Assembly: GCA_964638585.1 (NCBI GenBank)
Contig: CAZXAN010000001.1
Coordinates: 108,372 to 172,371, forward strand
From: an uncultured Candidatus Saccharibacteria bacterium
GTDB lineage: Bacteria > Patescibacteriota > Minisyncoccia > Phycocordibacterales > Phycocordibacteraceae
Reading direction: 5' to 3'
DNA: 64,000 nucleotides
Below the pieces are notes generated by a model that saw only the letters and a program-made list of their open reading frames with translations, searched no databases and was not told where the DNA came from. Position numbers and translations under genes: made by a program. Positions 17,831 to 34,688 of the stretch are shown in pieces; position 1 is the stretch's first letter, and each line of letters begins with the position of its first letter.

Positions 17831-19007
17831 GTAAGTCTTCGTTAAGGAGCCGACCCGTGCCGATCGTGTAACTATTGAAGCGCTCATGCGTAAAATCAAA
17901 GTAGAAGCCGCGCATCTTCTTCCAGCGTATGACTGCAAGGGTCGCGTTAAGAGCATTGAGGTCAGCAATCTGAATGTTCTTGTCGTATTCATTGTTGCCG
18001 TCTCCGTCGGCAAACGACAACCGGTTTCTAGCAATGGCACGACTATCCTTGTCGCTCGTGGTCACGCGCAGTATGCCACCGATAGTTTCGTTGGTGACGT
18101 ACAGGCCCATGCCCGTATCGATAAATGGAATGCCAAATTCCTCTAGCTTTTCGACTATCAACTTCTTAGCCAACCCGGCATCGATGCACAAAAACACACA
18201 CGTCATTTCGCGCAACTGCTCCACGTTTGAGCTATCTACGTGCTCTCCGTGGGCGACGACACCGCGGTGCAACTTGGAATATATCGCCTTGAAGTAGTCC
18301 ACCTTTAACGGCTGTTGATGCAGCTCGTCTTTGGATGCGGCCCCAGGCGCACGAAATGCGTTGTGGGACGAAAATTTGTCCCCATCAAACAAGTGAACCT
18401 CTCTTGCCGGCGTCTTGGCCAGGAGATCTAAGACATACGAGCCTGTGCCACCCAATCCAACTATCGCCAACTTCTCAACTGCAAGCTTGTTCGTGATCAT
18501 GTTGATATCCGCACGAGCGGATGCGGTGTCGAGATAGTTGAACGGTGAATTGTCGTCCTCAGGCTCAACTACCCGAAACGTCCTGGCGGTCGCAGACGGA
18601 TCGATATTGGCTGCGTGACCAGAAAGAATGGCCACATAGGTCTTGATTTTCTCGTGGTAGTCCTCGTAGTGGCCACGCAGCGGCTTGCTGGAAAAATGGA
18701 ACTGCGAACTTAATGTGTCGCTGAATCGAACCACCTCTTCGATCAGGCTTAATGCTTCTATCGGGTGGCCCTCACTTGTACACGGGCATTGACCGGCGAA
18801 CCTAATTTGATGGGTGTCAGGCCGATTCGCAACATCCCCATTGAGGTTCAGGCTGCTAATGAGGATGCCATCGTACTGCACCTTCCGCTTGTCATTGACA
18901 TACGGAATGTCCCGGATAACCAGGTTCGCTCCGTGGATGTAGACATTGTATCCTTCATCTCGGAGGCGCCGCAGGTCAGCATTAAGATCGAATAGTTTTG
19001 ACGACAT
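17817..19007 (-). CDS. ThiF/MoeB-family E1-like enzyme with N-terminal E2-like domain
   Basis: Rossmann motif LAIVGLGGTGSYVLDLLAKTPAREVHLFDGDKF; N-terminal 140 aa with HQIRFAGQCPC resembling UBC H-x-N...Cys spacing. Confidence 0.75.
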   Translation of the reverse strand: MSSKLFDLNADLRRLRDEGYNVYIHGANLVIRDIPYVNDKRKVQYDGILISSLNLNGDVANRPDTHQIRFAGQCPCTSEGHPIEALSLIEEVVRFSDTLSSQFHFSSKPLRGHYEDYHEKIKTYVAILSGHAANIDPSATARTFRVVEPEDDNSPFNYLDTASARADINMITNKLAVEKLAIVGLGGTGSYVLDLLAKTPAREVHLFDGDKFSSHNAFRAPGAASKDELHQQPLKVDYFKAIYSKLHRGVVAHGEHVDSSNVEQLREMTCVFLCIDAGLAKKLIVEKLEEFGIPFIDTGMGLYVTNETIGGILRVTTSDKDSRAIARNRLSFADGDGNNEYDKNIQIADLNALNATLAVIRWKKMRGFYFDFTHERFNSYTIGTGRLLNEDLHEQG

Positions 19008-19248
19008 CAAAGATGGTCCCGTGTTTTTTAACCTCGACGGACCCGGCGGCGGCAAGCGTGCCGTGGTGCGGCTTGCTCTGTGCATGTTCGAATGTGATCG
19101 AAAAAATCACGTTCGGGTCTTCAGGATGCCCTGGATACGCGATATCGATGAGGGAATTGAACGTCATCACCTCGGTCAAGACCAAGTGCGGTGTGCCATT
19201 CACAATGATTTCGTACTCTTTTTCATGTGCCATGATGATTTTCTCCAC
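18982..19248 (-). CDS. small beta-grasp ubiquitin-like protein
   Basis: 88 aa, predicted beta-alpha-beta pattern (YEIIVNGTPHLV...VIFSITFE...SVEVKKHGTIFDVV); 22 nt upstream of E1; ends KTIRS, not Gly-Gly. Confidence 0.5.
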   Translation of the reverse strand: MEKIIMAHEKEYEIIVNGTPHLVLTEVMTFNSLIDIAYPGHPEDPNVIFSITFEHAQSKPHHGTLAAAGSVEVKKHGTIFDVVKTIRS

Positions 19249-19395
19249 CAGCTTCTAGGGTAAGTGCGACGCTGGTATCGCATTAGAAATTTTACGCCTG
19301 CTGTTAATAACATCAAGGGAATTCAAGGTCACATATTGTTATTGTGAGTAACATATGGTATCGTTGACACCGTGCGGTATTTTGCATAACCTGTT

Positions 19396-19779
19396 TTGCA
19401 CACCAAGCTTAAATCGATGACGACCGCAAGCGCTAAAATTGAAAAGAGTGATAGCGATATTGAACAGGAAATACGAGAAGCGATCGGAGCTCGGATCGCT
19501 GAGATTCGGCGCAAGCGGAAGCTTAGCGCGCGCCTGGTCGGAGAGAAGCTCAAGATAACTCGTGAAGCGGTCACACACATTGAGACAGGAAGAAATAACG
19601 TTACCGCGCTTTCTCTATGGAAGCTCGCGACGCTATTTCATTGCGACATTAAGGACTTCTTCCCGGATGTGCCTGACGGTTACGGTCTTACCAAGATCGA
19701 TACCGAGAAGATCGCCCAGGAGGGCGGCCAAAAGGCGGCCAATTGGGCGAAAGAGCTTTTCGGTGCCAAATTAAAGTAA
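19396..19779 (+). CDS. XRE-family HTH transcriptional regulator (CapH-like)
   Basis: GARIAEIRRKRKLSARLVGEKLKITREAVTHIETGRNN HTH; divergent from Ubl operon. Confidence 0.75.
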   Translation: MHTKLKSMTTASAKIEKSDSDIEQEIREAIGARIAEIRRKRKLSARLVGEKLKITREAVTHIETGRNNVTALSLWKLATLFHCDIKDFFPDVPDGYGLTKIDTEKIAQEGGQKAANWAKELFGAKLK

Positions 19780-19785
19780 ATCCGT

Positions 19786-20286
19786 ATGATGATAGAAAAA
19801 ATTGAATCGGCCGCCGAGCAACTCCTTGCGAGGTTAAATATAAGAGGAGTGCCTATTCCAATTGAAGACATCGCCCGCTCTCTCGATATACGCATCAGCC
19901 GTGCACCGAGTGCAGACTTTTCGGGACTTCTAATAAGAAAAGACGGCCACGCGCTCATTGGCGTCAATAGCAGTGAGGCTCCCGTACGTCAGCGATTCAC
20001 TATCGCGCATGAAATTGCTCACTTTATCTTGCACCCACAGAAAGATGCCTTTGTCGATTACAGAAAGGAAAGAAGTGGGGGAGAAGCCAGGCCACTGCGT
20101 GAGCGCTACGCCGATATGTTTGCAGCAGCTCTCCTTATGCCGCGTAAGATCCTGTTGAAAGATTTTCGACGGCTAGCCAAGGATGGGTATACCGATCAGA
20201 TTACCGTGGCTCTTGCTAGACAATACGCAGTAAGTGAAGATGCTATGCGCTTTAGACTATTGAATCTCAATTCAATCGGAAATTGA
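19786..20286 (+). CDS. ImmA/IrrE-family zinc metallopeptidase (CapP-like)
   Basis: HEIAHFILH HExxH motif in ImmA-like context directly after HTH gene. Confidence 0.8.
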   Translation: MMIEKIESAAEQLLARLNIRGVPIPIEDIARSLDIRISRAPSADFSGLLIRKDGHALIGVNSSEAPVRQRFTIAHEIAHFILHPQKDAFVDYRKERSGGEARPLRERYADMFAAALLMPRKILLKDFRRLAKDGYTDQITVALARQYAVSEDAMRFRLLNLNSIGN

Positions 20287-20523: not shown

Positions 20524-21061
20524 CTTCGCCCCCGAACCGCCATGGCCGGGCTTTCGGGCAGATGTGGAGAAGATGCTGCGCCTGGTTGAGGTCAGATTCG
20601 GGCGTACGCACGGAGATCGGACACTCGTTGCAGTAATCGCCGACGGCCATCAAGACTGTCATGTAAGCGAGAAACTAGATATTGTGATCCGCGTCCAGAA
20701 CTGGAATGCAGGTGATCCGCGACAGGCTCATTTTCAAGTGTCCCATGAGACGCTTCATGCTTTGTCCCAAATTCCCGAGGTGCGGCGAACCAATCTCGAA
20801 GAAGGACTTGCAACCGTATTCCAACAGGACTACGACGTTTGCTGTTACGGGTCACCGCCACTCCAGCCTCCTCCGAATTCCGATTACGAGTTGGCACGGA
20901 ATGATGTCCGTGAATTACTAAACCTTGACCCCAATGTTATTCGGAAAATCAGGATGGTGGAGCCCACGATAAGCCGCATTACGGCTGTTCACATTCGTGA
21001 TGCTTGCGCGTCCTGCAGCGAAGAGTTGGCCGACAGATTAGCCCGACCGTTCGACTCATGA
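20456..21061 (+). CDS. hypothetical protein with HExxH...E zincin-like motif
   Basis: QVSHETLHALSQIPEVRRTNLEEGLA; likely start MMTVKIAK near 20492. Confidence 0.45.
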   Translation: MMTFGNHIYARPMMTVKIAKHFSFAPEPPWPGFRADVEKMLRLVEVRFGRTHGDRTLVAVIADGHQDCHVSEKLDIVIRVQNWNAGDPRQAHFQVSHETLHALSQIPEVRRTNLEEGLATVFQQDYDVCCYGSPPLQPPPNSDYELARNDVRELLNLDPNVIRKIRMVEPTISRITAVHIRDACASCSEELADRLARPFDS

Positions 21062-21144
21062 GTGTAAAGCATGCTGCGGCGGCCGGCTTTAAGAATGTGA
21101 TACCGGACTAAGCAACCTCTGTTTGAATTTACCACCTTCGAATA

Positions 21145-21477
21145 ATGACAGTCGACGATTTTGATGGCAATTTAGCACCTGCCGGAAACTGCTTCGAGGC
21201 GGCGGTGAAGTTCGTTCAGGATGCAACTGTGTTGGAGTGGCCGGATGACTACCGCGTCGTGCACGGGAATGTGGCCGCATTACGGCAAGATGAGGCGGTG
21301 AACCATGCTTGGGTAGAAGAGGGTGACGTCGTGCATGAGCTAAGCAACGGACGTAATCTTGCATTCTTTAGGCATGCGTATTACGAACGACACCAAGTCA
21401 CGAACATTCGCAAATACACTGTTTCGGAAGCCTTGCGCCTTTGTGTTGAGCACGGGCATTCCGGACCGTGGGACTGA
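21145..21477 (+). CDS. hypothetical protein
   Basis: 110-aa ORF, no motif recognised. Confidence 0.4.
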   Translation: MTVDDFDGNLAPAGNCFEAAVKFVQDATVLEWPDDYRVVHGNVAALRQDEAVNHAWVEEGDVVHELSNGRNLAFFRHAYYERHQVTNIRKYTVSEALRLCVEHGHSGPWD

Positions 21478-21531
21478 GGGACGCTCGCAGAAATAATGGT
21501 CGGCCGGATCAGCATGAGTAGATGGTCGTGA

Positions 21532-21777
21532 TTGTTGCGGCGGCGACAAATAACCGCGACTACTGTAAAGCGCGCGCTCTATCACAATACTGGCGCCGTA
21601 ATCTTCGGCCACAATCACCTTTCGGGCGTAGCGGAACCGAGCCATGCCGACGAGACGCTCACGCAAGCCCTCAAACAGGCGCTTGCCATCGTAGATGTAC
21701 GGGTGCTTGATCACTTTGTAGTAGCGGGGAATGGGGTGATGAGCTTCGCTGAATGTGGACGACGCTGTCCTTATTGA
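21532..21777 (+). pseudogene. RadC C-terminal fragment (partial duplicate of 11514..12080)
   Basis: about 85 percent nt identity to 3' third of radC; lacks N-terminal half; JAMM His/Ser/Asp retained (HNHLSG...SHAD). Confidence 0.7.
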
Positions 21778-22423
21778 CCTTACATATCTGCCGGCCTGGA
21801 GAGCTTATTTCCGGCTAGCGCAAACGCCGTGCATGTTTCTCGAACTCGAGGAGTGATTGCGCCATCGCCTGCGGTTGCTTCACCTGAAACACTGGCGGCG
21901 GGGCACGACAGCATTTCAGGAGCTGCGGGCGCTGGGAGCGAATGTGGATCAGGCGGCTCGGGTGGCGGGCAATACCCGTCGCTGGTGGCACCACAGCCGC
22001 TTGGAACTGAACCGGCTCATGCCCCTTTCCCACCTCGACCGTCTTGGCGTAACTCGGCTCTCATGACCTAAACTTCTTGAATTGCATGGTGTGGATCGCA
22101 TGCCGGATGGCGTGGGAGGGGACCGGTCAGGTTTCTCGATCGCCCCTGTCCCGATTACACATCACCTCAACATCCAAATTGCGAGCAGGAATAGGAATTC
22201 GCGATAATTTCAACTAACTGCTATTATTCCCATCGAGATGGTAGCGTTATGGGGCTAGACGAAACCGATGGTGTGCTTTGTTCTTGTTACCTAAGACTTT
22301 CCATTACTAGATGACTCCTCCAATAATTGGAAGTGTTGCACGACCGTCCGTATCGCAGATGGGACCGGTCTCGCAGTGCTCAGATTCCACTGTAATCTCA
22401 GGTAGGCATGGCGCTTTCAGCAG

Positions 22424-23314
22424 ATGCCTTTGGCCGATTCCGTTTCATCAGATCTCTGGGCGGCTAGTGAATGCGCCCACGGATTCCGAGCAGGCATGAG
22501 CGCCTTACGGGAAGCTGCGTTCGATGTTTTTGCGTCCCTGCATCATGACTGGGATGCCCCGCAGTTTTTCCTCCCCCCAACCTCCGTGGGTATCTCGCCG
22601 GATATATTGGAAGCCAGAGCTATGGCGGACCAGTCGGGAGTTGCGCAACACGAGTTCTTCCGCATAGCGCAAAGTTCCCCGGACCTGCTCAGGCTTTGGA
22701 CGAGCCAAGAAGCGGTTGTCACCGGGCCGTTTTCGCAGATGCTTCTATTGCTCGCAAGCCGAATAAAGAACGTTCACAGCCGCGCGAAGTTTCTTGAAGT
22801 CATTGAAGGAGAGCACGGTAACGTGCGAGATGGTGTGGCCTATCATTCTCATCCTTGGTTGCTTTATCGCCTCTGTGTGTCCGTTGATCTAGACCTTGCG
22901 GCGGTACGTCCGCTTCAGCCGACTCTCAAATTCCTCGCCGCGCTTGCTGATTCCTTCGAACATATGGAGGTTGCACTTGGCGTATTGGGAATTGGGAATG
23001 AGCGAATGCTGTTGTCCGAGTATGCCACAGTGGAGCGTTGTTTCGACGCGTGTATGCCGAACGCGGAGTATCGAGCGTTTTTGAGGGCTAACGTCGACGA
23101 AGATGAAATGCATTCTGCAATCATTGAGGCAGTGGTCTCTACCTTCTCGTCTCCCGACGCCGTTCAGCAATACGTCGAGGGCGCGCGGCGCGGTGTCAAA
23201 GCAAGGCTCGTCTATTATGACGAGCTTCTCAAACATTGGATTGACAGAGGGTTGGAACCGGAGTGGCTACGACCTATGTATCCGGCAACCGCGACTCCGG
23301 GTGTGGTGAGTTGA
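22424..23314 (+). CDS. putative heme-oxygenase-like fold (TenA/PqqC/CADD-like) iron-containing redox protein
   Basis: all-helical; EGEHG...H.HP motif arrangement; low-confidence family call. Confidence 0.35.
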   Translation: MPLADSVSSDLWAASECAHGFRAGMSALREAAFDVFASLHHDWDAPQFFLPPTSVGISPDILEARAMADQSGVAQHEFFRIAQSSPDLLRLWTSQEAVVTGPFSQMLLLLASRIKNVHSRAKFLEVIEGEHGNVRDGVAYHSHPWLLYRLCVSVDLDLAAVRPLQPTLKFLAALADSFEHMEVALGVLGIGNERMLLSEYATVERCFDACMPNAEYRAFLRANVDEDEMHSAIIEAVVSTFSSPDAVQQYVEGARRGVKARLVYYDELLKHWIDRGLEPEWLRPMYPATATPGVVS

Positions 23315-23429
23315 GCAGTCGAAGAAGGCGGCAAAACGCAAAGATGCGAAGAGCGACCCAACGACAAGACAAGACCTGTACAGCTATGCGTACTTAGGTT
23401 CTTGGGAGAGAAATGGTAAACTAAACAAC

Positions 23430-24422
23430 ATGACAAACTTGGAGTCTAGCCCAATGGATGTAAAGGTTCTGGTTACTGGATCAAGCGTTGACGGTCGGTT
23501 TCTCGCGCACCTCAGCGATGCCGGCCTACGAGTTCACAATCCGACGCACCTTCTAACGGACGAAGAACTCAGGGTCGAGCTCTCTGATACTGTTGCCTAT
23601 CTCCTCGGGGGTGATGAGTACGCAAGTGGTGCCGCCATGGAGAGTGCGGAAGGCCTCAAGATTATTGCGTTTCTCGGAGTTGGTTACGAGTCATTCATCG
23701 ATGTGCAAGCTGCAAGTCGCCGAGGAATACTGGTGTCCAACACACCAGGAACTCTCACGAATTCTGTTGCTGAGTTTACGGTTGGCCAACTTCTCAACGC
23801 GAGGCGACGTCTCACCCAGTTCACAAATGCGTTCGTGCAAGGGCGGCCGGGGACTGAAACTAAACAGCGTGACTTAATTGGCACACGAGTAGGGATAGTC
23901 GGTCTTGGTACCAACGGGACTCGAATCGCGGAGATTCTTCGATTGGGTTTTGGGTGTCACGTGAATTACTTCAGTCGGACGCGTAAGTTTGACATCGAGG
24001 ATCGACTTGGTATTGCATACCAATCGCTGGACGAACTAATGGAATGGGCAGAAGCGTATGTCATCATGACGCCCGGAAACGACTCAACACGTGACCTCAT
24101 TGGCAAGCAGGAGTTTGCCCGGATACCGGCGAATAGTCAGCGCCTCCTCGTCAACACGGCCCGATCTAGCATTGTAAATCCTAAAGCGCTACTTGAAGCT
24201 CTTCGAAGCGAGCGTTTGTCCATCGCCGTATTCGATGGCTTTTACGACGATGATTGTGTCGAAAGGTCTACTCTCCTTGCGCTTGGCCAGGAGCGAATTC
24301 TCGTCACAGGACATATCGCGTCGCTAACTTCGGATGCGCGAGATGCGATGTCGGCTATGGCTGTAACTTCGATTCTCAATGTGTTGCGGACCGGCCGCGA
24401 TGATCACGTCGTGATCAAGTAA
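23430..24422 (+). CDS. D-isomer-specific 2-hydroxyacid dehydrogenase family, NAD-binding
   Basis: GIVGLGTNGTRIAEIL Rossmann motif and family-typical layout. Confidence 0.8.
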   Translation: MTNLESSPMDVKVLVTGSSVDGRFLAHLSDAGLRVHNPTHLLTDEELRVELSDTVAYLLGGDEYASGAAMESAEGLKIIAFLGVGYESFIDVQAASRRGILVSNTPGTLTNSVAEFTVGQLLNARRRLTQFTNAFVQGRPGTETKQRDLIGTRVGIVGLGTNGTRIAEILRLGFGCHVNYFSRTRKFDIEDRLGIAYQSLDELMEWAEAYVIMTPGNDSTRDLIGKQEFARIPANSQRLLVNTARSSIVNPKALLEALRSERLSIAVFDGFYDDDCVERSTLLALGQERILVTGHIASLTSDARDAMSAMAVTSILNVLRTGRDDHVVIK

Positions 24423-24436
24423 GTAGAGTCTGTCCT

Positions 24437-25033
24437 ATGGGCACCAAACCGAGCGATCGTGACTGGGCTCCACTCGTATGTGGACTTCTTGCCGCCCTCC
24501 TTGTTATTGTGTTGTCGCTTCAATGGTGGGACTTGCGAATATTTGGAACAGCAGTCGACTACCAGCACGCCGGGACTTGGTCTCAAATGCTATCTGGCGT
24601 TGGTACTACATGCGCGGTCGCTCTGACCCTCGCTGTCTTATGGCTTGAGCGAAGGCAGCGGCGCAAAGAGTTGGCCGAAACCCGAGATCGCGACCTTACA
24701 CGTGTGCATGCGTGGCTCACCCCCCATCAGTCTAAGAATGAGAACGAGCCCGAGTGGTTTCTTAACTTCCAAAACCACACCGCAGTTCCCATCTATAGAT
24801 GGCGAGTGCTGCTAGGCGGCAAGGACCTTCATCTTTGCAACGCGCTGTTTGGCCCTATCCGCCCCGACAGAAGCGAACTTCATCTCGCATCGCTTCGAGG
24901 CATGAACCATGCGGACTATCCGTCAACAACGTTCTACTTTACAACGGGCGATGGACGAGCGTGGGTTCTCGGTGCCGACGGAGGTGCGGTCGAAGTACTT
25001 GAGCAATGCGTGCAATGTGACAAAGAGCATTAG
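24437..25033 (+). CDS. membrane-anchored hypothetical protein upstream of NACHT gene
   Basis: two N-terminal hydrophobic helices; 24 nt before NACHT start. Confidence 0.4.
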   Translation: MGTKPSDRDWAPLVCGLLAALLVIVLSLQWWDLRIFGTAVDYQHAGTWSQMLSGVGTTCAVALTLAVLWLERRQRRKELAETRDRDLTRVHAWLTPHQSKNENEPEWFLNFQNHTAVPIYRWRVLLGGKDLHLCNALFGPIRPDRSELHLASLRGMNHADYPSTTFYFTTGDGRAWVLGADGGAVEVLEQCVQCDKEH

Positions 25034-25056
25034 GGATCGGCTCGTAGGTTCAAGAC

Positions 25057-27789
25057 GTGAAGGATAAGCGGGAGGCCAACAAGTGGGTGGATCCAAAGAG
25101 CCCGATAGCGGATACGGATACGCCCACGACGAGGAATCCAGAGGCATCGCCTCCAGATGACGAGGCTGCACTTCGCGTGTACTTGGACCTTCTTAACTCT
25201 AGGTTGAACTGCCTTGAGTTTGGAGATCCAAGTGAGCTTCTCCAGAGTTCGTATGGGCTGCGAGGCTCCATGAGCCGACTAGAGGATATTTGGGTCCCTC
25301 CGCTGCTGCGGGAAGTTCCCTTCGGCTATACTAATCCGCCAGACCAGCAGCAGGCTGCGCTTGAGGTCTCGCTAGATAGGGCGCTAGCGAAGCCAAGTAG
25401 AGTATACGTCTTCCTGGCTCAGCCAGGTGGAGGGAAGTCCACAGTATGCCGTTTCTTGGCATGTAAGATGTCGTCAGTGCTTCCTCGCTCAGAAGCTGAT
25501 CCTGTCCCAATATATCTCCCAGCGCGCTTCTTGCGTCTTGGGGAATCCGGAATCGATGACGCTGTGGTAAGCGCCGCGCTTGAGCAGCTTGGCAGCAGTG
25601 CCAATTCTGAGCCCGTGCGTTCCGCAGTTCGGCGTTCGCTTCCGCGAGCATTCGTGATCATTGACGGATTGGATGAAGTGCCCATAGGCCCCGATGGCCA
25701 GGTTGGTATCGAAACTACACGAGCTCGAGTGGTCCAAGTCGTTCGTTATCTATTTGCAACATACAAAGCGCTGCGTTGCCTCATTACCTGCCGTGAGGCG
25801 GATTACGTTCTCGATCGACAATCAATTCTCAGCGAGGCCAACCATTTCAGTATAGGTGGGTTATCCCCGGTTCAAGTGCAGACTGCCATCACGCGTTGGC
25901 ATACTGCTGCGGAAATTGCTGCAAGGCACGTGGCGTCCGCACCGGCGATCGACTGGCAGCAGCGAGCAATGGAGGTCCGAGAACTCATTCGGGCGGATGC
26001 GGAGATTGGGGCTATCGCTTCCGTTCCGTTGTTTCTCAATATGCTACAAGTCGTCTATTCCCCGGCGAAGGAGGCACCGCGCTCGATCAGTCAGCTGTGT
26101 GACAGGGCAATTCGCTTCCTCCTCTATGAGAAGCCGCGTCTTCGTAGTGACAGGGCAAAAGCGCCGGCCGGAGGTGGCGCTCGAATTGAGTTTCTCTGGC
26201 ATCCTCAATCAAGTGAATGGCTCTCTAGGATTCTCCAAGAGCTTGCCTACCAAATTCAGAAACGTTCCTTAGAGGGCGGTAGCCGCGGTGTTACATTACA
26301 GGAAATCCATGCTGTAGCCCTTACAGTAGTTGACGTAAAGGCGAGGGACATTAGTGAGTCGGGTCACCTTGCTTTGTCTGCTGTCGAGCATGTTGTTCAG
26401 GGTAATGGAGTACTCGCTGAAGAATCAGGGAGGTGGGATTTCACTCATAACATCTTTCGAGAAGTGTTGGCTGGGCAAGCGCTCCAGAGATACGACATTA
26501 CGCAAAGAGTAACCCTTGCTAAGACGCACGGCTGGCTTCTGCCTCTGCGCTATTGGGCTGGATATGTCGCTCTCTCGGAGGCTGGCATCGGCGAAATCTT
26601 TGTAATGGCGGCGGAGTTACGTCAGCGCGCACTTAGGAGCAAGAGGGATCGCGTAAATTACATATTGGCCGCTGCCGAGATTATGTGTGAAGTGAACTCC
26701 GTCAGCGAAACAGTCGAAGTTTTGTCGAAACTCAAGGAAAAGGTCCGACGTGACCTAATTAGACTGCTCGAAAACCGCAAACTGCCGTTGGCGCTTCGTG
26801 TACGCGCTGGCGATCTTCTCGGTTCTCTCGGCGACCCCCGCCTAGGGAAGTCATTTGTTGAAGCAGAGTTTGTTCGCATCCCGTCTCGCACATATACGGT
26901 AGGGCGCAACACGCCTCACACCGTATTAAATAAGAAATATGATGAGTGTCCCGCATCGCCCTGCGTTGTCGGCGACATGAGAGATTTCCGTATTGCATTA
27001 TTTCCCGTCACCAACCGTGACTACGCCGCGTTCATAGCAGATGGGGGTTACGAGGATTCCAGATACTATTGTTCGAAGGACTCGGCCCATTGGTTTCGCG
27101 GAGATGCCGGCTTTATGCAAGAATTGGCATCTCGTGTAGATCAGACTGCCCTAAAGCACTTCATGACTGAGTTGACTGCGGGTCGAGTGTCCGATCTAGA
27201 GTTGGTCGAGCTGCGGGACCGGATTCTCAAGCGAAATGCACCGCTCTATTGGTACGACCCGCGTTTTAATAGACCAAATCAACCTGTCGTCGGAATAAAC
27301 TGGTGGGAAGCGATGGCATTCTGTAGGTGGGCTGAAACAAAACTGCGAGCCGTGGGCGTCCTTCAAACAGGCGAGTCTGTGACGTTACCAACGGAGGTGC
27401 AGTGGGAGTGTGCCGCGAAGGGGCCTGATGATTCGGCTCCGCATCCGTGGGGAACTGCCGGCCCTGAGGATAATGCGCACGTTCGGACATCCAAGAGCAT
27501 CGCGCGGACCTGTGGAGTCGGATTGTTCCCGTGGGCGAGGTGCGCGGGTGGACCTCTAGATATTGTGGGGAACGTCTGGGAGTGGACCCGCTCGGTACCG
27601 GGGGTTCTCAAGGGCGCTTCATTTAGGAACGTTCCATCCACTGACGGTAATAGTGATCGTGTCGTGAGAGGCTCGTCTTGGCTGTCCACCGAGCCGGAGT
27701 CTGCGAGCATTACTTTCCGGTCCTTTGATCCACCCTGTAACGCCTACGAGGATCTCGGCTTCAGGATCGCAATCGTCGCACAGGAGTAG
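25057..27789 (+). CDS. STAND NTPase (NACHT-like) with HEAT/PBS-lyase-like repeat and C-terminal FGE-sulfatase (formylglycine-generating-enzyme-like) domain
   Basis: Walker A LAQPGGGKST, Walker B AFVIIDGLDEV; LGSLGDPR repeat; C-terminal RIALFPVTNRDYAAF...INWWEAMAFCRW...GNVWEWT...RVVRGSSW. Confidence 0.8.
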   Translation: MKDKREANKWVDPKSPIADTDTPTTRNPEASPPDDEAALRVYLDLLNSRLNCLEFGDPSELLQSSYGLRGSMSRLEDIWVPPLLREVPFGYTNPPDQQQAALEVSLDRALAKPSRVYVFLAQPGGGKSTVCRFLACKMSSVLPRSEADPVPIYLPARFLRLGESGIDDAVVSAALEQLGSSANSEPVRSAVRRSLPRAFVIIDGLDEVPIGPDGQVGIETTRARVVQVVRYLFATYKALRCLITCREADYVLDRQSILSEANHFSIGGLSPVQVQTAITRWHTAAEIAARHVASAPAIDWQQRAMEVRELIRADAEIGAIASVPLFLNMLQVVYSPAKEAPRSISQLCDRAIRFLLYEKPRLRSDRAKAPAGGGARIEFLWHPQSSEWLSRILQELAYQIQKRSLEGGSRGVTLQEIHAVALTVVDVKARDISESGHLALSAVEHVVQGNGVLAEESGRWDFTHNIFREVLAGQALQRYDITQRVTLAKTHGWLLPLRYWAGYVALSEAGIGEIFVMAAELRQRALRSKRDRVNYILAAAEIMCEVNSVSETVEVLSKLKEKVRRDLIRLLENRKLPLALRVRAGDLLGSLGDPRLGKSFVEAEFVRIPSRTYTVGRNTPHTVLNKKYDECPASPCVVGDMRDFRIALFPVTNRDYAAFIADGGYEDSRYYCSKDSAHWFRGDAGFMQELASRVDQTALKHFMTELTAGRVSDLELVELRDRILKRNAPLYWYDPRFNRPNQPVVGINWWEAMAFCRWAETKLRAVGVLQTGESVTLPTEVQWECAAKGPDDSAPHPWGTAGPEDNAHVRTSKSIARTCGVGLFPWARCAGGPLDIVGNVWEWTRSVPGVLKGASFRNVPSTDGNSDRVVRGSSWLSTEPESASITFRSFDPPCNAYEDLGFRIAIVAQE

Positions 27790-27793
27790 TACT

Positions 27794-28543
27794 GTGTCGC
27801 AGGAGAATGGCACACTTTCCCTAGAAGATGCCCGGCTGGAGATTGGTAATGCTTGGCGCGTGCTTGGCCATTACGGTGTCGTTGACACTATTTTTAACCA
27901 CATCTCCCTGGCTTGCATGTCACCAGGCGGTCAATCTAACTGCTTCGCGATTAATCCACTAGGGGTGTTGCCGACCATACTCAAGGCTCATGAGGTACTG
28001 GTGCTCGACGTTTCAACTCCAGACGCGAAAGACTCAATGCGAGTTAATCCTGATGGACTCGCGCTTCACTCAGCGATTCATAGACGACGTGAGGGCAAGG
28101 CTACCGCCATTGTGCATCTTCATTCGCCTTATGCGGTTGCTGTAGGCTCATCAATGAATGGATTGCTACCACTTTCGCAGACGGCTCTGGAGTTCGTGGA
28201 TGAAGTTAAGTACTTCCCTTATCGCGGACTCTTCGGTATGCCTGGAGGTATCGACGAAGATTTGATCGAACATGCCGCCGTTGGATGCGTTGCGCTCCTT
28301 AGGAACCACGGGACCCTTGTAGTAGCGGACTCAGTGGCAGAGGCGGTATATGTCGCATACTATCTTGAAGAAGCTTGCCGACTCCAGGTGCTCGCGCTCA
28401 CTGCCGTCGCCGGCAAGGGCGCAATGCTCGTCGCACAGGACGTTATTGGTCAAACGGGCCAGCGTCTCCGCGAAACGCGTACGATGGTAGCTAAGGAATT
28501 CTTCCGTGCTTCTGTAGCGATGCTTGAGGAATTGGGTCGATGA
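27794..28543 (+). CDS. class II aldolase/adducin-family protein
   Basis: AIVHLHSPYAVAV metal-binding region; GTG start immediately after NACHT stop. Confidence 0.7.
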   Translation: MSQENGTLSLEDARLEIGNAWRVLGHYGVVDTIFNHISLACMSPGGQSNCFAINPLGVLPTILKAHEVLVLDVSTPDAKDSMRVNPDGLALHSAIHRRREGKATAIVHLHSPYAVAVGSSMNGLLPLSQTALEFVDEVKYFPYRGLFGMPGGIDEDLIEHAAVGCVALLRNHGTLVVADSVAEAVYVAYYLEEACRLQVLALTAVAGKGAMLVAQDVIGQTGQRLRETRTMVAKEFFRASVAMLEELGR

Positions 28544-29508
28544 AGAGCGTGGCGGTAGTCGGATCAGGTGTCATTGGTCTTACGACTGCGATTGAGCTTG
28601 CGCGAAGCTTTCAGGTGGTAGTGTTTTCCCACCAGCCTCTTCTTTCGACGACATCGGCGATAGCAACGGCAATGTGGCACGTATATTTGGTCGATCCAAA
28701 TGCGCCTGTTGTACTGAAATGGGCGCAGGCGTCCCTCAACAAGTTTTTGGCATTGGCCAAAACTACACCTGAGTCCGGTTTGACCGTGATTCGCGGAATT
28801 GAGTTATTCCGGAAGTCACCGTGCAAGGTACCGCCTTGGAGAGACATTCCACCCCAATTTCGAATGCTGAATAGCGATGATCTCCAGGCGTTCCCCGGCA
28901 TTACGTGGGGCTATGAGATTTCTGCGCCTCTCGCCGAGATGCGGCGATATCTTCCTTGGCTGAAAGGAACCGCGGAGAAAGCTGGCGTGAGTTTTGTGGC
29001 TCGCAAGCTAGCATCGTTGGAGGATGTTGGGAGGACATTCGATGTTGTGGTGAACTGTGCTGGGCTTGGCGCTCGGGAGCTCATTGAAGATATGACGCTC
29101 CGTCCAGTTCGTGGTCAGTATGTGATTCTCGAAAGAGGCGTGGATTGCCCTGATACCTACGTTGGCGATGACGAGAATCCTGGGGGTATGAGCTACGCGA
29201 TTCCCCGCGAGTTTGACGTTTGCGTCGGTGGCACGGAAGAATACGATGTCGAACAGCTCGTTTTCGACGTAGACGAGAACGCGATGCTGCGCCGCGCGTC
29301 GAAGTTTTTCCCGTGGATCTTTGGGGCAAAGCCGAGAATTCTTGAACGCGTTGTCGGCCTGAGACCGTTTCGGCAAGGAGGGGTTTGCCTTGAAATCGGC
29401 ACGCTCGCGGACGGGCGTCCTCTTATACATAACTACGGCCACGGTGGGTCCGGCTTCAGTCTTTCGTGGGGGTGCGCCTACGATGTCGTGCGGTTGGCTG
29501 TCGGCTGA
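28540..29508 (+). CDS. FAD-dependent oxidoreductase, D-amino-acid-oxidase-like
   Basis: N-terminal VAVVGSGVIGLTTAIELA dinucleotide-binding motif; C-terminal HNYGHGGSGFSLSWG. Confidence 0.75.
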   Translation: MKSVAVVGSGVIGLTTAIELARSFQVVVFSHQPLLSTTSAIATAMWHVYLVDPNAPVVLKWAQASLNKFLALAKTTPESGLTVIRGIELFRKSPCKVPPWRDIPPQFRMLNSDDLQAFPGITWGYEISAPLAEMRRYLPWLKGTAEKAGVSFVARKLASLEDVGRTFDVVVNCAGLGARELIEDMTLRPVRGQYVILERGVDCPDTYVGDDENPGGMSYAIPREFDVCVGGTEEYDVEQLVFDVDENAMLRRASKFFPWIFGAKPRILERVVGLRPFRQGGVCLEIGTLADGRPLIHNYGHGGSGFSLSWGCAYDVVRLAVG

Positions 29509-29820: not shown

Positions 29821-29900
29821 GTAAGTGTCCCCAAATCCCCGCACTACCGCAGTTAATCTGAATATGTCAGCGTTCGTCCTTTTGACTGGGGAGGCGGACG

Positions 29901-30221
29901 ATGGGCGAAGGGGAACAATCTGGGCGGGTCGCGGCTGCGACGAAGCGTGCGTACTGGGGGCAACGCATCACCGAGTGGGAGCGGTCTGGGCAATCGCAAA
30001 AGGCATTCTGCGCCAAACACGGCCTGGTACTCTCGACGTTTCAGTGGTGGTGTGCGCAGCGCAAGCGGCGGGCGGCGGCAAGGCCGGTGACGCCATTTTT
30101 GCCGATCGCGATGCATTCGGTGAGCGTGGTGGAAGTGGAGTTGCGCTCGCGCACACGCATACGTTTTGAGGGTGAAGCGGCGCTGCAGGCGGTAGCGCAG
30201 TTGACGGCGCGGGTAAAGTGA
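29901..30221 (+). CDS. IS66 family accessory protein TnpA (orf1)
   Basis: small HTH-like ORF preceding TnpB; WERSGQSQKAFCAKHGL typical. Confidence 0.8.
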   Translation: MGEGEQSGRVAAATKRAYWGQRITEWERSGQSQKAFCAKHGLVLSTFQWWCAQRKRRAAARPVTPFLPIAMHSVSVVEVELRSRTRIRFEGEAALQAVAQLTARVK

Positions 30222-30565
30222 TCCTCGGTGGCGGAGTCAAGGCGTATGTGTGCACGGAGCCCGTTGATATGCGTAAATCGATCGATGGCCTATCGCAACT
30301 GGTGGCGCCGCTGCTCTCAGGCGATGCATTCTCTGGCAGCGTGTTCGTGTTCATGTCGCGTCGGCGCGAGAAGGTAAAGCTCTTGTGGTGGGATCGACAC
30401 GGATTCTGGCTCGCGTATAAGCGTCTTGAGCGAGGGCGCTTTCCGCGGCCTGAGGAACTGGCGCGCCGGGGGCTTTCGTTGGCCGAACTCACAGCGTTTC
30501 TTGAGGGGATCGATCTCACGCGCACGCGACGTCTTGCGAGCGTGTCGGCGATGCGAATTTCATAG
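30218..30565 (+). CDS. IS66 family TnpB (orf2)
   Basis: KAYVCTEPVDMRKSIDGLSQLV...LWWDRHGFWLAYKRLE hallmark. Confidence 0.85.
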   Translation: MILGGGVKAYVCTEPVDMRKSIDGLSQLVAPLLSGDAFSGSVFVFMSRRREKVKLLWWDRHGFWLAYKRLERGRFPRPEELARRGLSLAELTAFLEGIDLTRTRRLASVSAMRIS

Positions 30566-30607
30566 ACGATTTTGTCAACGGTAAAGGGCGTGAATCGTTA
30601 GCTATGC

Positions 30608-32143
30608 ATGCCCGCGCTTACCCTAAACGACATTGATTTAATCAGCGACATCGATGTGCTGAAAGGGCTCATCACCGAGCGCGATTCAGTGATCGCGAAT
30701 TTGAGCGCACAGATTGAATCGCTCAAACAACAATTCCTCAATTTGCGGCGCATGCACTTCGGTGCGACGAGCGAGAAGTTCTCCGGACAGACCGAGCTGT
30801 TCACCGAGAAGGTGGACCTGCCCATTCCACCGGAACCAGACAAGCTGACCGTTCCAGAGCATCAGCGCCGCAAGGGCCGTCCGGCCTTGCCCGATGATCT
30901 TCCGCGTGAACGGCGCGAGTACGATCTGTCTGAGGCCGAGAAGGCCGAATTCGATTCGATCAAACGCATCGGCGAGGAAGTCTCCAGCAGCATCGAGTAC
31001 ACACCCGCCCGCGTGATCGTGCTCGAACATGCGCGCGCCAAGTACGCCTGCATCAAGGATGGCGAGTCGACCATCCGCACCGCCCATGCCGAGCCTTCCC
31101 CGCTGCCGAAGTCCAATGCCGGCGCGAGCCTACTGGCCCAGATCCTGACGGCGACCTTTGCCGACCATTTGCCGCTGAACCGGCAGGAAGGGATCTTCAA
31201 GCGCCACGGCGTCAATCTGCACCGCTCGACCCTGTGCGAGTACAAGCTGGGCGCGGGCGAACTGCTGGCGGTCCTGCGCGCCCCGCTGATCGCCCACGTC
31301 CTGGCAGCGCCCCGCGTTCACAGCGACGACACCACCCTGCCGCTGCTGGAGAAGGGGCGGGGTAGCACCAAGACCGCTCGGCTGTGGGGCTATCTCGGTG
31401 CCGGGTGCAGGCAGACGCCCGAGGGCGCCTGGGTCGAGCATGCGCCGGCGGCGGTGTTCGAGTTCACCGAGTCGCGCGAAGCAATCCATCCGTCGCGTTT
31501 CCTCAATAATTACAGCGGTTATCTCCAAGTCGACGCCTATTCCGGATACGAAGCGATCTTCAAGACCGGTCGCGTGATCGAAGTCGGATGTCTCGCCCAT
31601 TCGAGGCGACGTTTCTTCGAGATCGCCAAGACCCAGAAGCCCCCTGGCCTGGCGGCCGACGCGATTGCTTGGTTCGCGAAGCTCTACGAGATCGAATCCC
31701 GGATCAAGGAGGAACTGCCGGACAAGAAATTGCAGGTCCGACAGGAAGAGTCGGTGCCGCTCTTGTCGGAGTTCAAGCGCTGGCTCGACGGCCACTATGG
31801 CACTCTCCTGCCGCAGAGCCCGCTGGGCCAGGCGTTCGGTTATGCGATCCGCCAGTGGCAGGCGTTGACGCGCTATGCCGAGAACGGCATCCTGATGCCG
31901 GACAACAACCTGCTGGAGCGGCAGATGAGACCGATCGCCATGGGTAGAAAAGCGTACTTGTTCGCCGCCTCGGAGCGCGGCGGCGAGGTGGCGGCCACGA
32001 TGTACTCGCTGGTGGCGACCTGCAAGCTGAACCGGATCGAACCCTTTGCCTATCTGAAGGATGTCTTGGGGCGCATCCGCAGCCACCGGGTCGATCGGCT
32101 GGCCGAGTTGCTGCCCTTCAACTGGTCGCCAGCGAACGCATGA
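30608..32143 (+). CDS. IS66 family transposase TnpC
   Basis: 511 aa, leucine-zipper N-terminus, CxxH zinc motif and DDE region typical of IS66 transposases. Confidence 0.9.
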   Translation: MPALTLNDIDLISDIDVLKGLITERDSVIANLSAQIESLKQQFLNLRRMHFGATSEKFSGQTELFTEKVDLPIPPEPDKLTVPEHQRRKGRPALPDDLPRERREYDLSEAEKAEFDSIKRIGEEVSSSIEYTPARVIVLEHARAKYACIKDGESTIRTAHAEPSPLPKSNAGASLLAQILTATFADHLPLNRQEGIFKRHGVNLHRSTLCEYKLGAGELLAVLRAPLIAHVLAAPRVHSDDTTLPLLEKGRGSTKTARLWGYLGAGCRQTPEGAWVEHAPAAVFEFTESREAIHPSRFLNNYSGYLQVDAYSGYEAIFKTGRVIEVGCLAHSRRRFFEIAKTQKPPGLAADAIAWFAKLYEIESRIKEELPDKKLQVRQEESVPLLSEFKRWLDGHYGTLLPQSPLGQAFGYAIRQWQALTRYAENGILMPDNNLLERQMRPIAMGRKAYLFAASERGGEVAATMYSLVATCKLNRIEPFAYLKDVLGRIRSHRVDRLAELLPFNWSPANA

Positions 32144-32667
32144 CCCCGGAAGAACTGGCAGCCCTGGTCAGGAATCTTCCGCAGGCGGAGTCCCTGGACC
32201 TGTATCGTCTGGAGTACGTCATCCGGGCGCTGTACTCCGAACCTAAGCGCATTCTTGCCATTCGCGTTCACCTGCGCCTTGGCATGATGGTCCGGTTCTT
32301 CGGCCGCAATACCGGCGCCTTCCATTCCGGGCGCATCGTGGCGATGAACGATCACGGGGTGACAATCGACGAGCCGACGCTCAACCTGCGCCACAAAAAT
32401 CTGCCCTACGCCGCGATCGATCTGAAGACGCCGGCGCAGCCCGAGGTCGAGTTCGTCGCCGCCGCGTCGCCACGGCCCGCCGCCAAAGCAGCCTCCCGCC
32501 CCGACTTCAAGGTCGGCGACCGCGTTACCTTCCAGGATCGCAACAACATTCTAGTAACGGGAACGGTCAGGCGCATCAATCAGAAGACAGTGACGGTGGC
32601 CCCGGACAATAAGGACGGTCACTGGCGCGTCTCGGCCGCGTTACTGAACCACCTCGTCGATATCTGA
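32140..32667 (+). CDS. IS66-associated fourth ORF, function unknown
   Basis: overlaps tnpC stop, lies inside the IS66 inverted repeats. Confidence 0.4.
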   Translation: MTPEELAALVRNLPQAESLDLYRLEYVIRALYSEPKRILAIRVHLRLGMMVRFFGRNTGAFHSGRIVAMNDHGVTIDEPTLNLRHKNLPYAAIDLKTPAQPEVEFVAAASPRPAAKAASRPDFKVGDRVTFQDRNNILVTGTVRRINQKTVTVAPDNKDGHWRVSAALLNHLVDI

Positions 32668-32752
32668 CATCGGCGGCGTTCCGCCGCGACCGGCGCAATT
32701 CCGTCGCTATCGAAATCCCAAACGTCAAGGACGGGGATTTGGCGACGGATAC

Positions 32753-32760
32753 GAATAATT
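32753..32760. repeat. 8-bp target-site duplication GAATAATT, right copy, IS66 element
   Basis: matches 29813-29820. Confidence 0.7.
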
Positions 32761-32925
32761 GATAATGTCTCCAGTAGCTCTGGGTCGCGGGCGTTGTATA
32801 AAGTTCTAATTCTGTCCAAGGCTCCGCGCCTTTCTCGATCCCTCTTGCACTCAAAGGTCCGCACGTCGGTCGCCAGTCAGGAGGTCATGCCACGATCGAC
32901 AAAAGGTTATAGAGACGTTCGATCG

Positions 32926-33629
32926 TCATTCGTGCGCGGCTTGTATTGCTTTATCTGATAGGCTATGTCGGAAGAAGTTTTTCTTTTTCTTAATATCGCG
33001 GCCAAAAAACCGCTGGTAGTTCCTGTAGGCATATTCAGTATCTTGCTTTGATCCTCCCGTGATCACCACAAATTCCGGTCGCTTTGATCGTGAGAGCTCC
33101 ACACGCTTCAAAAGGTGCTTAAATTCGTAATCAGCGGCAGGCAGTGAATATCCGATAAAGACCCATTTGCGGGCCTGCCGCAAGAGGCCTTCCGCCAAGA
33201 ACCAGGATTTCTCGAACATCGGAAAGTCAAGCGCTTTTAGGAAACTGAAGGTGGCAATGCGCGTCGTCAGGGGAACACTAGTGCAACTTAGGCAGTGCCA
33301 TTTCTCACAATCATCTACCTGTGTCACCCTTAGATCTCTTCCCTCGCGGTGGGTGAGAAGCTGCATGGCAACCGAGACCGCGTCATCCGCGGGGAACCAG
33401 TAAAGTTGGCGACAGTTGTCGCAGTAGAGCCAATTCACGGACCCGTGGATTTTAACCAGTGGTAACCTATTCGAGTCATCAGGCAGGTCTCGCGTCGCAA
33501 CGCTGGTGCGACCCGGTGGGAACTTGGCAGGGATGGCTCCGCAACCGTACTCAAACTGTTGCACATTCCGCAATGCAGTGAGCCTCCGTTCAATAACCGT
33601 GTCCCAGTTGTGGACGGCGTCAAGCAGGA
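32926..33629 (-). pseudogene. SIR2-like (SIR2_2 family) protein, C-terminal fragment, separated from N-terminus by IS21 insertion
   Basis: LVKIHGSVNW, CDNCRQ...CLSC zinc ribbon, KWVFIGYSLPAADYEF; apparent start MIVVRP is encoded by the IS21 terminal repeat. Confidence 0.7.
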
Positions 33630-33845
33630 TGGCCGGTCGAACGACAATCATCTTGGCCGGTCGGCCGGGGATGATTGTCGTCGGTTAGCCGTTTGTTGAG
33701 ATTCGACTCATTTGGGTTGCGTGGCAATATTTCGACCTCATAAGACGCGCTATAAGCGATTCTCTTGTGGCCGGTGGGGGTAGGACATGGCCGGAATTGC
33801 ATGTTTTAAGAGCATCGGTTCGTTTTTTGACAGACGGTTGAGAAT

Positions 33846-34688
33846 TCATGGACGTCGCTCCGGTGGTAGGTTGTCGCTGTTTTCGGATGTTTGACGCCGG
33901 CGCTGCGCTTTCGCGACGTCGTGCCGGGTCTGTTTGTCGCTCGTGGCCGTCTTGCGGCGGTAGCTTTCAACGTTGAGTTCGAAGATCGTCGAGTGGTGCA
34001 CCAGGCGGTCGATGGCGGCGACGGTCATGCCGGGGTCGGGGAACACGTTATCCCACCCGGAGAAGGCCTGATTGGCAGTAATGAGGATGCTACGTCTCTC
34101 GTAGCGCTCGGCGATCAGCTCGAACAGCACGCTGGTTTCGGCCTGATCCTTTCTGACATACGAGATGTCGTCCAGAATGAGCAAATCGAAGCGGTCGAGC
34201 TTGGCGAGCATCGACGGTAACTGCAAGCTTTGGCGAGCGGCCTGAAGCCGCTGCACCATTTCGCTGGTGCGCATGAATAGCACACGATAGCCGGTCTCAA
34301 TCAGTGCGTGCCCGATACCGGAGCCGAGATGACTCTTGCCGACACCCGGTGGACCGAAGATCAGGATCGTGGCGCCTTTTTCTAGCCAGGAATCCCCAGT
34401 TGCCAGTGCCGTGACATGGGCTTTGGAGAGCATCGGCACAGAACCGAAGTCGAAGGTATCGAGTGTCTTGGTGGGGTCCAGATGCGACTCGTCACGATGA
34501 CGCCCGATACGTCGCTTGGCGCGCTCGGCAAGCTCGTGTTCCAGCAGTGCGCCCAGGAAACGTGTGGCCTGCCAGCCTTCCTTGTCGGAGCGCTGGGCGA
34601 ACTCGGGCCACAATCGCGAGATCGTTGGTAGCCGCAGTTCGTTGAGCATCAAGGCGAGCCGGCCGGGCTCATAGGTGGGCGCGTTCAT
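33846..34688 (-). CDS. istB: IS21 helper ATPase IstB
   Basis: Walker A GPPGVGKSHLG, Walker B LLILDDISY. Confidence 0.9.
   Translation of the reverse strand: MNAPTYEPGRLALMLNELRLPTISRLWPEFAQRSDKEGWQATRFLGALLEHELAERAKRRIGRHRDESHLDPTKTLDTFDFGSVPMLSKAHVTALATGDSWLEKGATILIFGPPGVGKSHLGSGIGHALIETGYRVLFMRTSEMVQRLQAARQSLQLPSMLAKLDRFDLLILDDISYVRKDQAETSVLFELIAERYERRSILITANQAFSGWDNVFPDPGMTVAAIDRLVHHSTIFELNVESYRRKTATSDKQTRHDVAKAQRRRQTSENSDNLPPERRP

Follow-up and report, generated by a model that had tools for sequence, protein, structure and literature searches.

Bacterial proteins that join a NACHT NTPase to a C-terminal domain of the formylglycine-generating-enzyme fold (FGE, also called FGS) are established as antigen-receptor-type bacterial NOD-like receptors, or NLRs (Kaur et al. 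2020, PMC7159879; Kibby et al., 10.1101/2022.07.19.500537; STAND survey PMC13581612). Here we describe a gene of this architecture, together with the six-gene cassette to which it belongs, at 22496-29508 of the plus strand of a 64,000-nucleotide stretch of DNA from an uncultured Candidatus Saccharibacteria bacterium (GenBank assembly GCA_964638585.1, contig CAZXAN010000001.1, positions 108,372 to 172,371; this whole stretch is called the window below, and positions are given in its own numbering). We know of no NACHT-FGE protein with a known ligand, and such genes are usually treated as standing alone and reading proteins. The NLR of the cassette departs from this view: it has no effector of its own and shares a conserved operon with a dedicated membrane partner and with enzymes that related loci replace by non-homologous analogues. 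The NACHT-FGE architecture is thus known, while the conserved metabolic operon appears to be undescribed; searching the literature gave nothing on NACHT proteins with a D-amino-acid oxidase, nor on defence islands with an aminotransferase and a STAND (signal transduction ATPases with numerous domains) protein.

The window protein shares with the described bacterial NACHT-FGS proteins the order of NACHT, helical domains and a single C-terminal FGE fold, intact Walker A and B motifs, a fold like that of NLRP3, NOD2 and NLRC4, a location in defence islands and mobile genetic elements, and clade relatives with TIR or caspase heads. Unlike them, it has no fused effector or adaptor, its FGE domain is the most conserved part rather than a diversified one, and no diversity-generating retroelement (DGR) goes with it. 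To the Avs (AVAST, antiviral STAND) systems it is similar in combining a STAND NTPase with a C-terminal sensor in a defence-island setting, and an Avs-like gene indeed lies in the same window (38225-40999); it differs in the lack of an N-terminal nuclease or protease, in having an FGE fold instead of a TPR-like sensor, in giving no PADLOC/Avs match and in belonging to an operon of enzymes. In CBASS (cyclic oligonucleotide-based antiphage signalling), Thoeris, Pycsar (pyrimidine cyclase system for antiphage resistance) and type III CRISPR (clustered regularly interspaced short palindromic repeats), dedicated enzymes make a small molecule for a separate reader, often a membrane effector, and the logic of the cassette may be comparable. 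However, the signals of those systems are nucleotide-derived and come from cyclases or TIR proteins, whereas the cassette enzymes are of amino-acid oxidase or transaminase and 2-oxoacid reductase types, and the reader would be an NLR. As in SARP/AfsR and MalT, a STAND NTPase is genetically tied to a small-molecule pathway, and the clade includes members with a BTAD head, but the window protein has no DNA-binding domain and its core is NACHT, not NB-ARC or MalT-type. Finally, the FGE-sulfatase (C-type-lectin-like) fold is that of FGE itself and of EgtB/OvoA, with a HEAT-like helix before the fold as in EgtB and ToxD; the Cu-binding cysteine pair of FGE is absent, as is the DinB iron domain of EgtB/OvoA, whose models score far under their cutoffs.

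Our reading of the cassette, which we hold tentatively and would put a little short of an even chance, is that it forms a mobile conflict module and ties the effector-less NLR, along with its membrane partner, to a dedicated metabolite derived from an amino acid. This metabolite would be the ligand of the FGE domain, or possibly the output of the module. As to the type of conflict, an anti-phage role or one against other mobile genetic elements is the most likely.

The six genes are co-directional and tightly spaced, and all lie on the plus strand. In order, they encode a heme-oxygenase-like protein, a putative diiron oxidase/oxygenase (272 aa, 22496..23314; Pfam Haem_oxygenas_2, PF14518); a D-isomer-specific 2-hydroxyacid dehydrogenase that is glyoxylate/hydroxypyruvate reductase-like (322 aa, 23454..24422; Pfam, NCBIfam); a small membrane protein (198 aa, 24437..25033); the NACHT-FGE STAND NTPase, without an N-terminal effector domain (910 aa, 25057..27789; Pfam); a class II aldolase/adducin-fold protein with a GTG start (249 aa, 27794..28543; Pfam Aldolase_II); and a flavoenzyme of the D-amino-acid/D-aspartate oxidase type (322 aa, 28540..29508; Pfam DAO). 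A first-pass annotation of this DNA, made from the letters alone, had the reading frames on the correct strand and at the correct coordinates, and the 910-aa NACHT-FGE protein and the aldolase GTG start next to the NACHT stop are as it described them. Its gene order, with the membrane protein named first, had to be corrected to the one given here. The gaps among the last five genes are 14, 23, 4 and -4 nt, and the six genes therefore form a single operon. An AGGAG is found within the final NACHT codons, 8 nt 5' of the aldolase GTG, which itself begins 4 nt past the NACHT stop; this Shine-Dalgarno sequence in the 3' end of the NACHT gene and the 4-nt overlaps point to co-translation. The longest open reading frame of the heme-oxygenase-like gene starts at 22424 and gene callers start it at 22496 (in identical contigs); for the dehydrogenase the two starts are 23430 and 23454. 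No riboswitch or leader RNA was found at the gathering threshold in the whole window, nor at E<=1 in 21000-23600, and promoter and terminator scans were uninformative, with match counts at shuffle level.

An indexed protein search with the NLR returned six full-length relatives (38-51% identity). Together with the window and one locus that was reached via the heme-oxygenase-like protein, these make eight independent loci with what we call a type-1 cassette (the window, L005, L006, L008, L009, L098, L099 and L102; NLR identity 36-51%). In eight of eight the NACHT-FGE gene has beside it the membrane protein, always directly upstream, as well as the dehydrogenase (2-Hacid_dh) and the oxidase (DAO). 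This co-conservation had been set beforehand as the check on the idea of a common module, and the three genes do accompany the NLR everywhere. The heme-oxygenase-like gene is present in six of the eight, the aldolase fold in five, a Ser/Thr-dehydratase-type pyridoxal phosphate (PLP) enzyme in two and a 2-oxoglutarate (2OG) oxygenase in one. The flanks of the cassette are different in every locus. In L009, from Streptosporangium, where a TetR gene is also present, the enzymes are on the opposite strand, yet still adjacent. Moreover, the orthologue identities of all six families shift together, that is, the families diverge in step. The cassette set is absent from 80 loci whose FGE or NACHT-FGE genes are more distant, as searched with hidden Markov models of the six families, and from the outgroup locus L100, whose NACHT-FGE protein has 24% identity. 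Given the co-conservation in all eight loci and the empty controls, the association is specific and selected. In L102 the aldolase-fold gene is broken into fragments of 75 and 78 aa (13111-13586 of that locus) while the remaining genes are intact, which suggests that this enzyme is dispensable.

The profile of the membrane protein led to relatives of roughly 150 aa, and all of those with a readable context sit in a second type of cassette. Type 2 consists of an Ldh_2 dehydrogenase, the membrane-protein homologue, a P-loop-FGE protein of 765-812 aa, a class I/II aminotransferase and a small EamA-like membrane protein, to which some loci add a PLP dehydratase, a BBE oxidase, a GT1 or a second Ldh_2 gene. 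Four loci have the whole core, and three short contigs have part of it; a metagenome scan with type-2 N-termini gave four loci. The FGE domains of types 1 and 2 align with an hhalign probability of 99.9, including a helical insert of roughly 50 aa, but the NTPase halves cannot be aligned and only the P-loop is common to them. In the type-2 NTPases (L091, L092, L093, L017) the P-loop GIGKT is kept, and the Walker B position reads VVLMGRPG, with no acidic residues; such a protein may bind NTP but not hydrolyse it. These halves give weak AAA_16/NACHT P-loop matches only, and their STAND membership is not established.

A third type was found at L101, on a mobilizable plasmid of Alisedimentitalea scapharcae (NZ_CP123587.1, 55673-64030). 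It holds a WelO5-like 2OG oxygenase, a methyltransferase, a GntC-like (GntC/MppP-like) PLP enzyme, a DAO-family oxidase, RidA, a 292-aa hypothetical protein and a NACHT-FGE protein with 27% identity over 97% of the window protein. The enzyme set of this locus is reminiscent of the biosynthesis of non-proteinogenic (arginine-derived) amino acids.

What is homologous across the three types is the FGE-bearing NTPase; the membrane protein is common to types 1 and 2 only. The enzymes are exchanged for non-homologous ones of the same predicted chemistry. The first common step is the conversion of an amino acid to an imino or 2-oxo acid, by oxidase, aminotransferase, dehydratase or RidA. The second, found in types 1 and 2, is the conversion of a 2-oxo acid to a 2-hydroxy acid, by 2-Hacid_dh or Ldh_2. 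In our opinion, this swap of non-homologous enzymes with an apparently kept chemistry is the strongest evidence for a functional metabolic link. Two more specific proposals were discarded or disfavoured. Hydrogen peroxide from the oxidase as a common toxic output was rejected, since type 2 has an aminotransferase instead. A route from lysine to pipecolate, by aminotransferase and a DpkA-like Ldh_2, is disfavoured, as the best scores of the Ldh_2 proteins are with sulfolactate, malate and ureidoglycolate dehydrogenases. Because of these best scores, and because 2-Hacid_dh enzymes are, to our knowledge, not known as imine reductases, a 2-hydroxy-acid product is the more parsimonious one.

A scan of GTDB genomes with the full NLR alignment found generic FGE proteins of at most 25% identity only, because the most conserved motifs are generic, and its hits were reused as a negative control. 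A metagenome scan with a clade-specific NACHT segment returned nothing, and viral contigs gave no relatives. A plasmid collection contained neither a DNA match for the cassette nor a protein match for the heme-oxygenase-like protein or the type-2 NTPase; the sole match was the type-3 Alisedimentitalea locus.

In the NLR itself, the NACHT core occupies aa 119-284 (25411..25908; Pfam, 33.9 bits against a cutoff of 26.7), as is also seen from invariant columns and from Foldseek. Walker A is GGGKST at aa 124-129 and Walker B is DGLDE at aa 203-207, and in the alignment of seven orthologues G124, G126, K127, S128 and T129 of the former and D203, G204, D206 and E207 of the latter are invariant. An AlphaFold2 (AF2) model of the protein has a mean predicted local distance difference test (pLDDT) score of 69; it is good over aa 33-600 and poor across much of the FGE domain, and its best matches among PDB structures are NLRP3, NOD2 and NLRC4 (E about 1e-10), in agreement with an NBD-HD1-WHD-HD2 fold. 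For aa 1-115 Pfam is empty: some 35 unstructured residues stand before a conserved LEFGDP linker. A homotypic adaptor was not found either, as BLAST gave no cross-family matches between the N-terminus of the NLR and the other cassette proteins.

The C-terminal FGE-sulfatase domain (PF03781, aa 605-905, 26869..27771), the presumed sensor, is matched by Pfam with 129 bits. No other part of the protein is as well conserved as this domain, in which mean pairwise identity is 50% against 37% in the nucleotide-binding domain, and the C-terminal motif TFRSFDPPCNAYEDLGFR of the domain hardly varies in the orthologue alignment. Such conservation argues for a constant ligand and would be the opposite of what a diversifying, antigen-type receptor is expected to show. 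As regards a DGR, the sole reverse transcriptase of the window is that of a group II intron, with no dedicated template-repeat search run. True FGE (SUMF1-type) has a catalytic cysteine pair, C336 and C341 in the human enzyme, that binds Cu(I). Across the seven orthologues of the window protein, not a single cysteine position is invariant; the pair whose retention the first-pass annotation proposed to check is therefore absent, and the domain is not a true FGE and has no FGE catalysis. In the segment SWLSTEPES, serines presumably take the places of the cysteines of human FGE. The EgtB, SenA and OvoA models of NCBIfam match the FGE-like part only, with 82 bits against a cutoff of 360, 74 against 420 and 53 against 400. 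The HEAT repeats that had been read into the middle of the protein are weakly borne out, since Pfam finds no PBS-lyase HEAT domain at E<=0.01 in the 910-aa protein and the claim reduces to one invariant helix, AGDLLGSLGDPR. This single HEAT-like motif, RVRAGDLLGSLGDPR (aa 581-595, 26797..26841), stands 5' of the FGE fold, is invariant or near-invariant among the orthologues and aligns with the element before the FGE fold in EgtB (4x8b) and ToxD (7spq). The roughly 50-aa helical insert of the FGE domain is present also in types 2 and 3 and missing in the outgroup L100. It was considered as a marker of metabolic cassettes and rejected, because effector-fused relatives carry it too.

The membrane partner always stands directly upstream of the NTPase-FGE gene, and its family is common to type-1 and type-2 cassettes. 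It has no Pfam, NCBIfam or PADLOC match, and its alignment was too variable to serve as a scan query. In the AF2 model (pLDDT 76) a first transmembrane (TM) helix at about aa 7-30 is followed by a second one, which runs on as a basic stalk (aa 48-87), and then by a beta-sandwich of roughly 95 aa (aa 90-186). By the positive-inside rule the sandwich would be cytosolic.

All four cassette enzymes look active, because their cofactor and catalytic motifs are invariant. The heme-oxygenase-like protein reaches 42 bits with Haem_oxygenas_2 against a cutoff of 28.9, and its GEH, ER..EY and ED..H motifs are invariant in six orthologues; it has no sequence match to any solved heme-oxygenase-like diiron oxidase (HDO) or other structure. 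Its 17 database homologues, down to 40% identity, look cassette-specific, and the one that was looked up, P0032, sits in the same cassette. The dehydrogenase matches both 2-Hacid_dh and 2-Hacid_dh_C in Pfam; GxGxxG, NTxR and TGH(I/V)xSLT are invariant in eight orthologues, the catalytic Arg and His are present, the acidic partner of the His has no confident placement, and the best NCBIfam equivalog stays below threshold (151 bits against 455). In the aldolase-fold protein (Pfam, 115 bits) the metal-ligand motifs HLHS and LRxHG are invariant, and no NCBIfam equivalog is reached. Among solved structures it is nearest to 3ocr, adducin, the NovR decarboxylase and TqaM; some members of this group decarboxylate 2-oxo and 2-hydroxy acids oxidatively. 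The oxidase (DAO, 143.5 bits in Pfam) is of the eukaryote-type D-aspartate/D-amino-acid oxidase kind. Among solved structures it matches human D-aspartate oxidase (DDO, 6rkf) at E=5.6e-43 and the pig and human D-amino-acid oxidases (DAAO) at about 1e-39. Its LRPxR motif, with the Arg for the substrate carboxylate, and HN(Y/F)GHG (HNYGHGG in the window) are invariant in eight orthologues, and the GxGxxG for FAD is present. The Tyr aligned to Y228 of pig DAAO is kept in the window protein and is Phe in three orthologues.

If these parts work together, one may imagine the following scheme. An amino acid would be deaminated to a 2-oxo acid, here by the D-amino-acid oxidase and elsewhere by an aminotransferase, a Ser/Thr-dehydratase-type PLP enzyme, or an FAD oxidase with RidA; the 2-oxo acid would then be reduced to a 2-hydroxy acid, by 2-Hacid_dh here and Ldh_2 elsewhere. 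Optional tailoring could be done by an oxygenase, for which the heme-oxygenase-like (putative diiron) enzyme, the class II aldolase-fold protein similar to NovR and a 2OG oxygenase are candidates. A small molecule derived from an amino acid, with its level set by the pathway, would sit in the conserved pocket of the FGE domain, and a change of this ligand in infection or stress would release the autoinhibition of the NACHT module. The NTPase would oligomerise and, having no fused effector, act via the membrane partner, either by clustering of TM helices and membrane damage or by gating of metabolite traffic. We infer the identity of the metabolite, its binding by the FGE domain, the direction of control and the membrane output. 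The strongest form of this idea, a metabolite-gated bacterial NLR as a new kind of defence, in which the enzymes make or remove a non-nucleotide, amino-acid-derived FGE ligand and the NLR signals in trans through a membrane protein, seems to us unlikely; if true, it would be loosely parallel to amino-acid-derived immune signals in plants. Should the link be mechanistic, the cassette would offer a tractable 7-kb system for studying the ligand of an FGE-fold sensor and the signalling of an NLR that has no fused effector, and would show whether bacterial immunity employs amino-acid-derived small molecules as signals or weapons.

The surroundings of the cassettes bear on the conflict part of our reading. 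The window looks like cargo of an integrative and conjugative element (ICE) or plasmid, with a serine recombinase, three T4CP/HerA-like ATPases, a ResIII helicase and the insertion sequences IS66 and IS21. By PADLOC, DrmA, DrmB and DrmC (DISARM) are directly upstream of the cassette in L102, DndB and DndD directly downstream of it in L008, and a type III restriction endonuclease and Ppl upstream in the type-2 locus L091; L101 has an annotated restriction-modification (R-M) system upstream, and L006 and L008 have relaxase and type IV secretion genes. A defence gene is found within 5 kb in 4 of the 11 loci with usable flanks, the neighbours having been classified by ourselves, which against a background of 0.0153 (the rate taken from PMC13581612) gives a binomial P of 1.7e-5. 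By an exhaustive profile search the clade of the NLR has about 20 representatives above 600 bits and dozens more full-length members, and so is larger than the indexed search implied. Several of these relatives carry an N-terminal DUF4062/TIR, TIR, caspase or BTAD domain ahead of the common LxFGDP linker; the window protein begins about 35 aa before this linker and has no such head. Three members of the same clade, P0061, P0069 and P0083, have a winged-helix and BTAD (SARP-like) N-terminus, and would be ligand-sensing transcription activators with an FGE-fold sensor. We know of no discussion of this BTAD-headed architecture.

Several points weigh against a conflict module. A search of PADLOC-DB v2 with the six cassette proteins (E<=0.01) gave nothing except a chance-level 15-bit DAO match. 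The membrane partner has no significant fold match in the PDB and no recognisable pore or toxin fold. The FGE part of the AF2 model is of low confidence, with a pLDDT below 50 over aa 792-901. The count of defence neighbours comes from 11 loci and our own classification, and purely metabolic cargo is also carried by mobile elements. In addition, such enzymes as the WelO5-like oxygenase, the methyltransferase, GT1 and BBE, together with the EamA-like protein, resemble the content of a small biosynthetic cluster, and the BTAD/winged-helix heads of P0061, P0069 and P0083 point to transcriptional control of secondary metabolism and not to immunity. These last points belong to a serious, if doubtful, alternative, according to which the cassette is a mini biosynthetic or catabolic cluster for a modified amino or hydroxy acid and the NACHT-FGE protein a non-immune ligand-sensing regulator or scaffold of the pathway, comparable to the STAND regulators AfsR and MalT. 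The membrane protein would then serve export, import or self-resistance, and the product may itself be a weapon, with the NLR not a sensor of invaders. The further accessories of natural-product type (the heme-oxygenase-like and GntC/MppP-like enzymes, TetR in L009) agree with this, and the conserved FGE domain fits a small-molecule ligand. However, the NACHT-FGE protein has no DNA-binding or other output domain, the NLR lies in the middle of the operon and is not a divergent regulator, other close relatives carry TIR and caspase heads, and DISARM, Dnd, R-M and ICE or plasmid genes are near the cassettes far above the background rate. If the alternative is nevertheless true, the locus still defines a mobile pathway, so far undescribed, that includes both a D-amino-acid oxidase and a heme-oxygenase-like oxidase.

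It is also conceivable, although we consider it improbable, that two independent units travel together: an abortive-infection pair of membrane protein and NACHT-FGE protein, whose FGE domain senses a phage or host protein, and a mechanistically unlinked, hitch-hiking metabolic or addiction module. Indeed the pair of membrane protein and NTPase-FGE is the constant, translationally coupled core in both type 1 and type 2, such FGE (FGS) domains count as sensors of the protein- or antigen-receptor type in bacterial NACHT proteins, and some loci can do without the aldolase and heme-oxygenase-like genes. But the enzymes lie on both sides of the pair inside one operon and are retained down to about 36% NLR identity and through the strand rearrangement of L009, and the non-homologous replacements with the same chemistry in types 2 and 3 are hard to explain without selection on function. 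Very improbable, in our estimate, is a role for the FGE-fold domain as a further enzyme of the pathway, of the SUMF1/EgtB/PvdO type, which might for instance act as an oxidase or form C-S bonds, with NACHT as an NTP-driven chaperone or assembly factor. An orthologue is named "SUMF1/EgtB/PvdO family nonheme iron enzyme" by NCBI, the solved structures that match best by sequence are those of the biosynthetic proteins EgtB and ToxD, and the domain is highly conserved. Yet there is neither a conserved cysteine nor a DinB-type iron-binding domain, the EgtB, SenA and OvoA scores are far under their cutoffs, and the fusion to NACHT, with TIR or caspase heads among the relatives, agrees with a role in sensing. 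Returning to the conflict module coupled to a metabolite, the first-pass annotation had come to a similar view and is partly supported overall. Its statement that this is not an Avs-type nuclease system agrees with the lack of a fused effector and of a PADLOC match, and its term conflict module with the DISARM, Dnd, R-M and ICE or plasmid neighbours and the TIR- or caspase-fused relatives. That the module produces or senses a small molecule seems plausible, all the more so given that the sister cassettes have analogous enzymes in exchange.

Other features of the window deserve a short description. At 17817-20286 a ThiF/E1 and DUF6791 protein (minus strand) and an 83-aa Multi_ubiq gene adjoin a divergent pair of a helix-turn-helix gene and an M78 (IrrE-like) peptidase gene; this looks like a ubiquitin-like conjugation conflict module, with weak E1-E2 matches only in PADLOC. 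A DprA/SLOG-like gene at 15515-16420 (minus strand) and, just upstream of the cassette, a RadC/JAB-like fragment at 21532-21777 (plus strand) are typical of leading or cargo regions of conjugative elements. In the region 29825-36190, IS66 (tnpB 30218-30565, tnpC 30608-32143) bounds the cassette downstream. IS21 follows on the minus strand (istB 33846-34688, istA 34685-36190) with about 76% identity to Burkholderiaceae plasmid copies, and between the two elements there is a weak SIR2-like reading frame (32926-33651, minus strand). The Avs-like gene at 38225-40999 (minus strand) encodes a 924-aa protein with Mrr_cat, an nSTAND5 NTPase and TPR, that is, a nuclease-STAND sensor, with a weak PADLOC match to PDC-S02; it is the second STAND gene of the island and unrelated to the NACHT-FGE gene. 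The group II intron is complete (44483-46295, minus strand; Rfam D1-D4 and 3' end), carries a reverse transcriptase/maturase reading frame at 44554-45951 (RVT_1 and GIIM) and is inserted just past the ResIII/SNF2 helicase gene (41499-44417).

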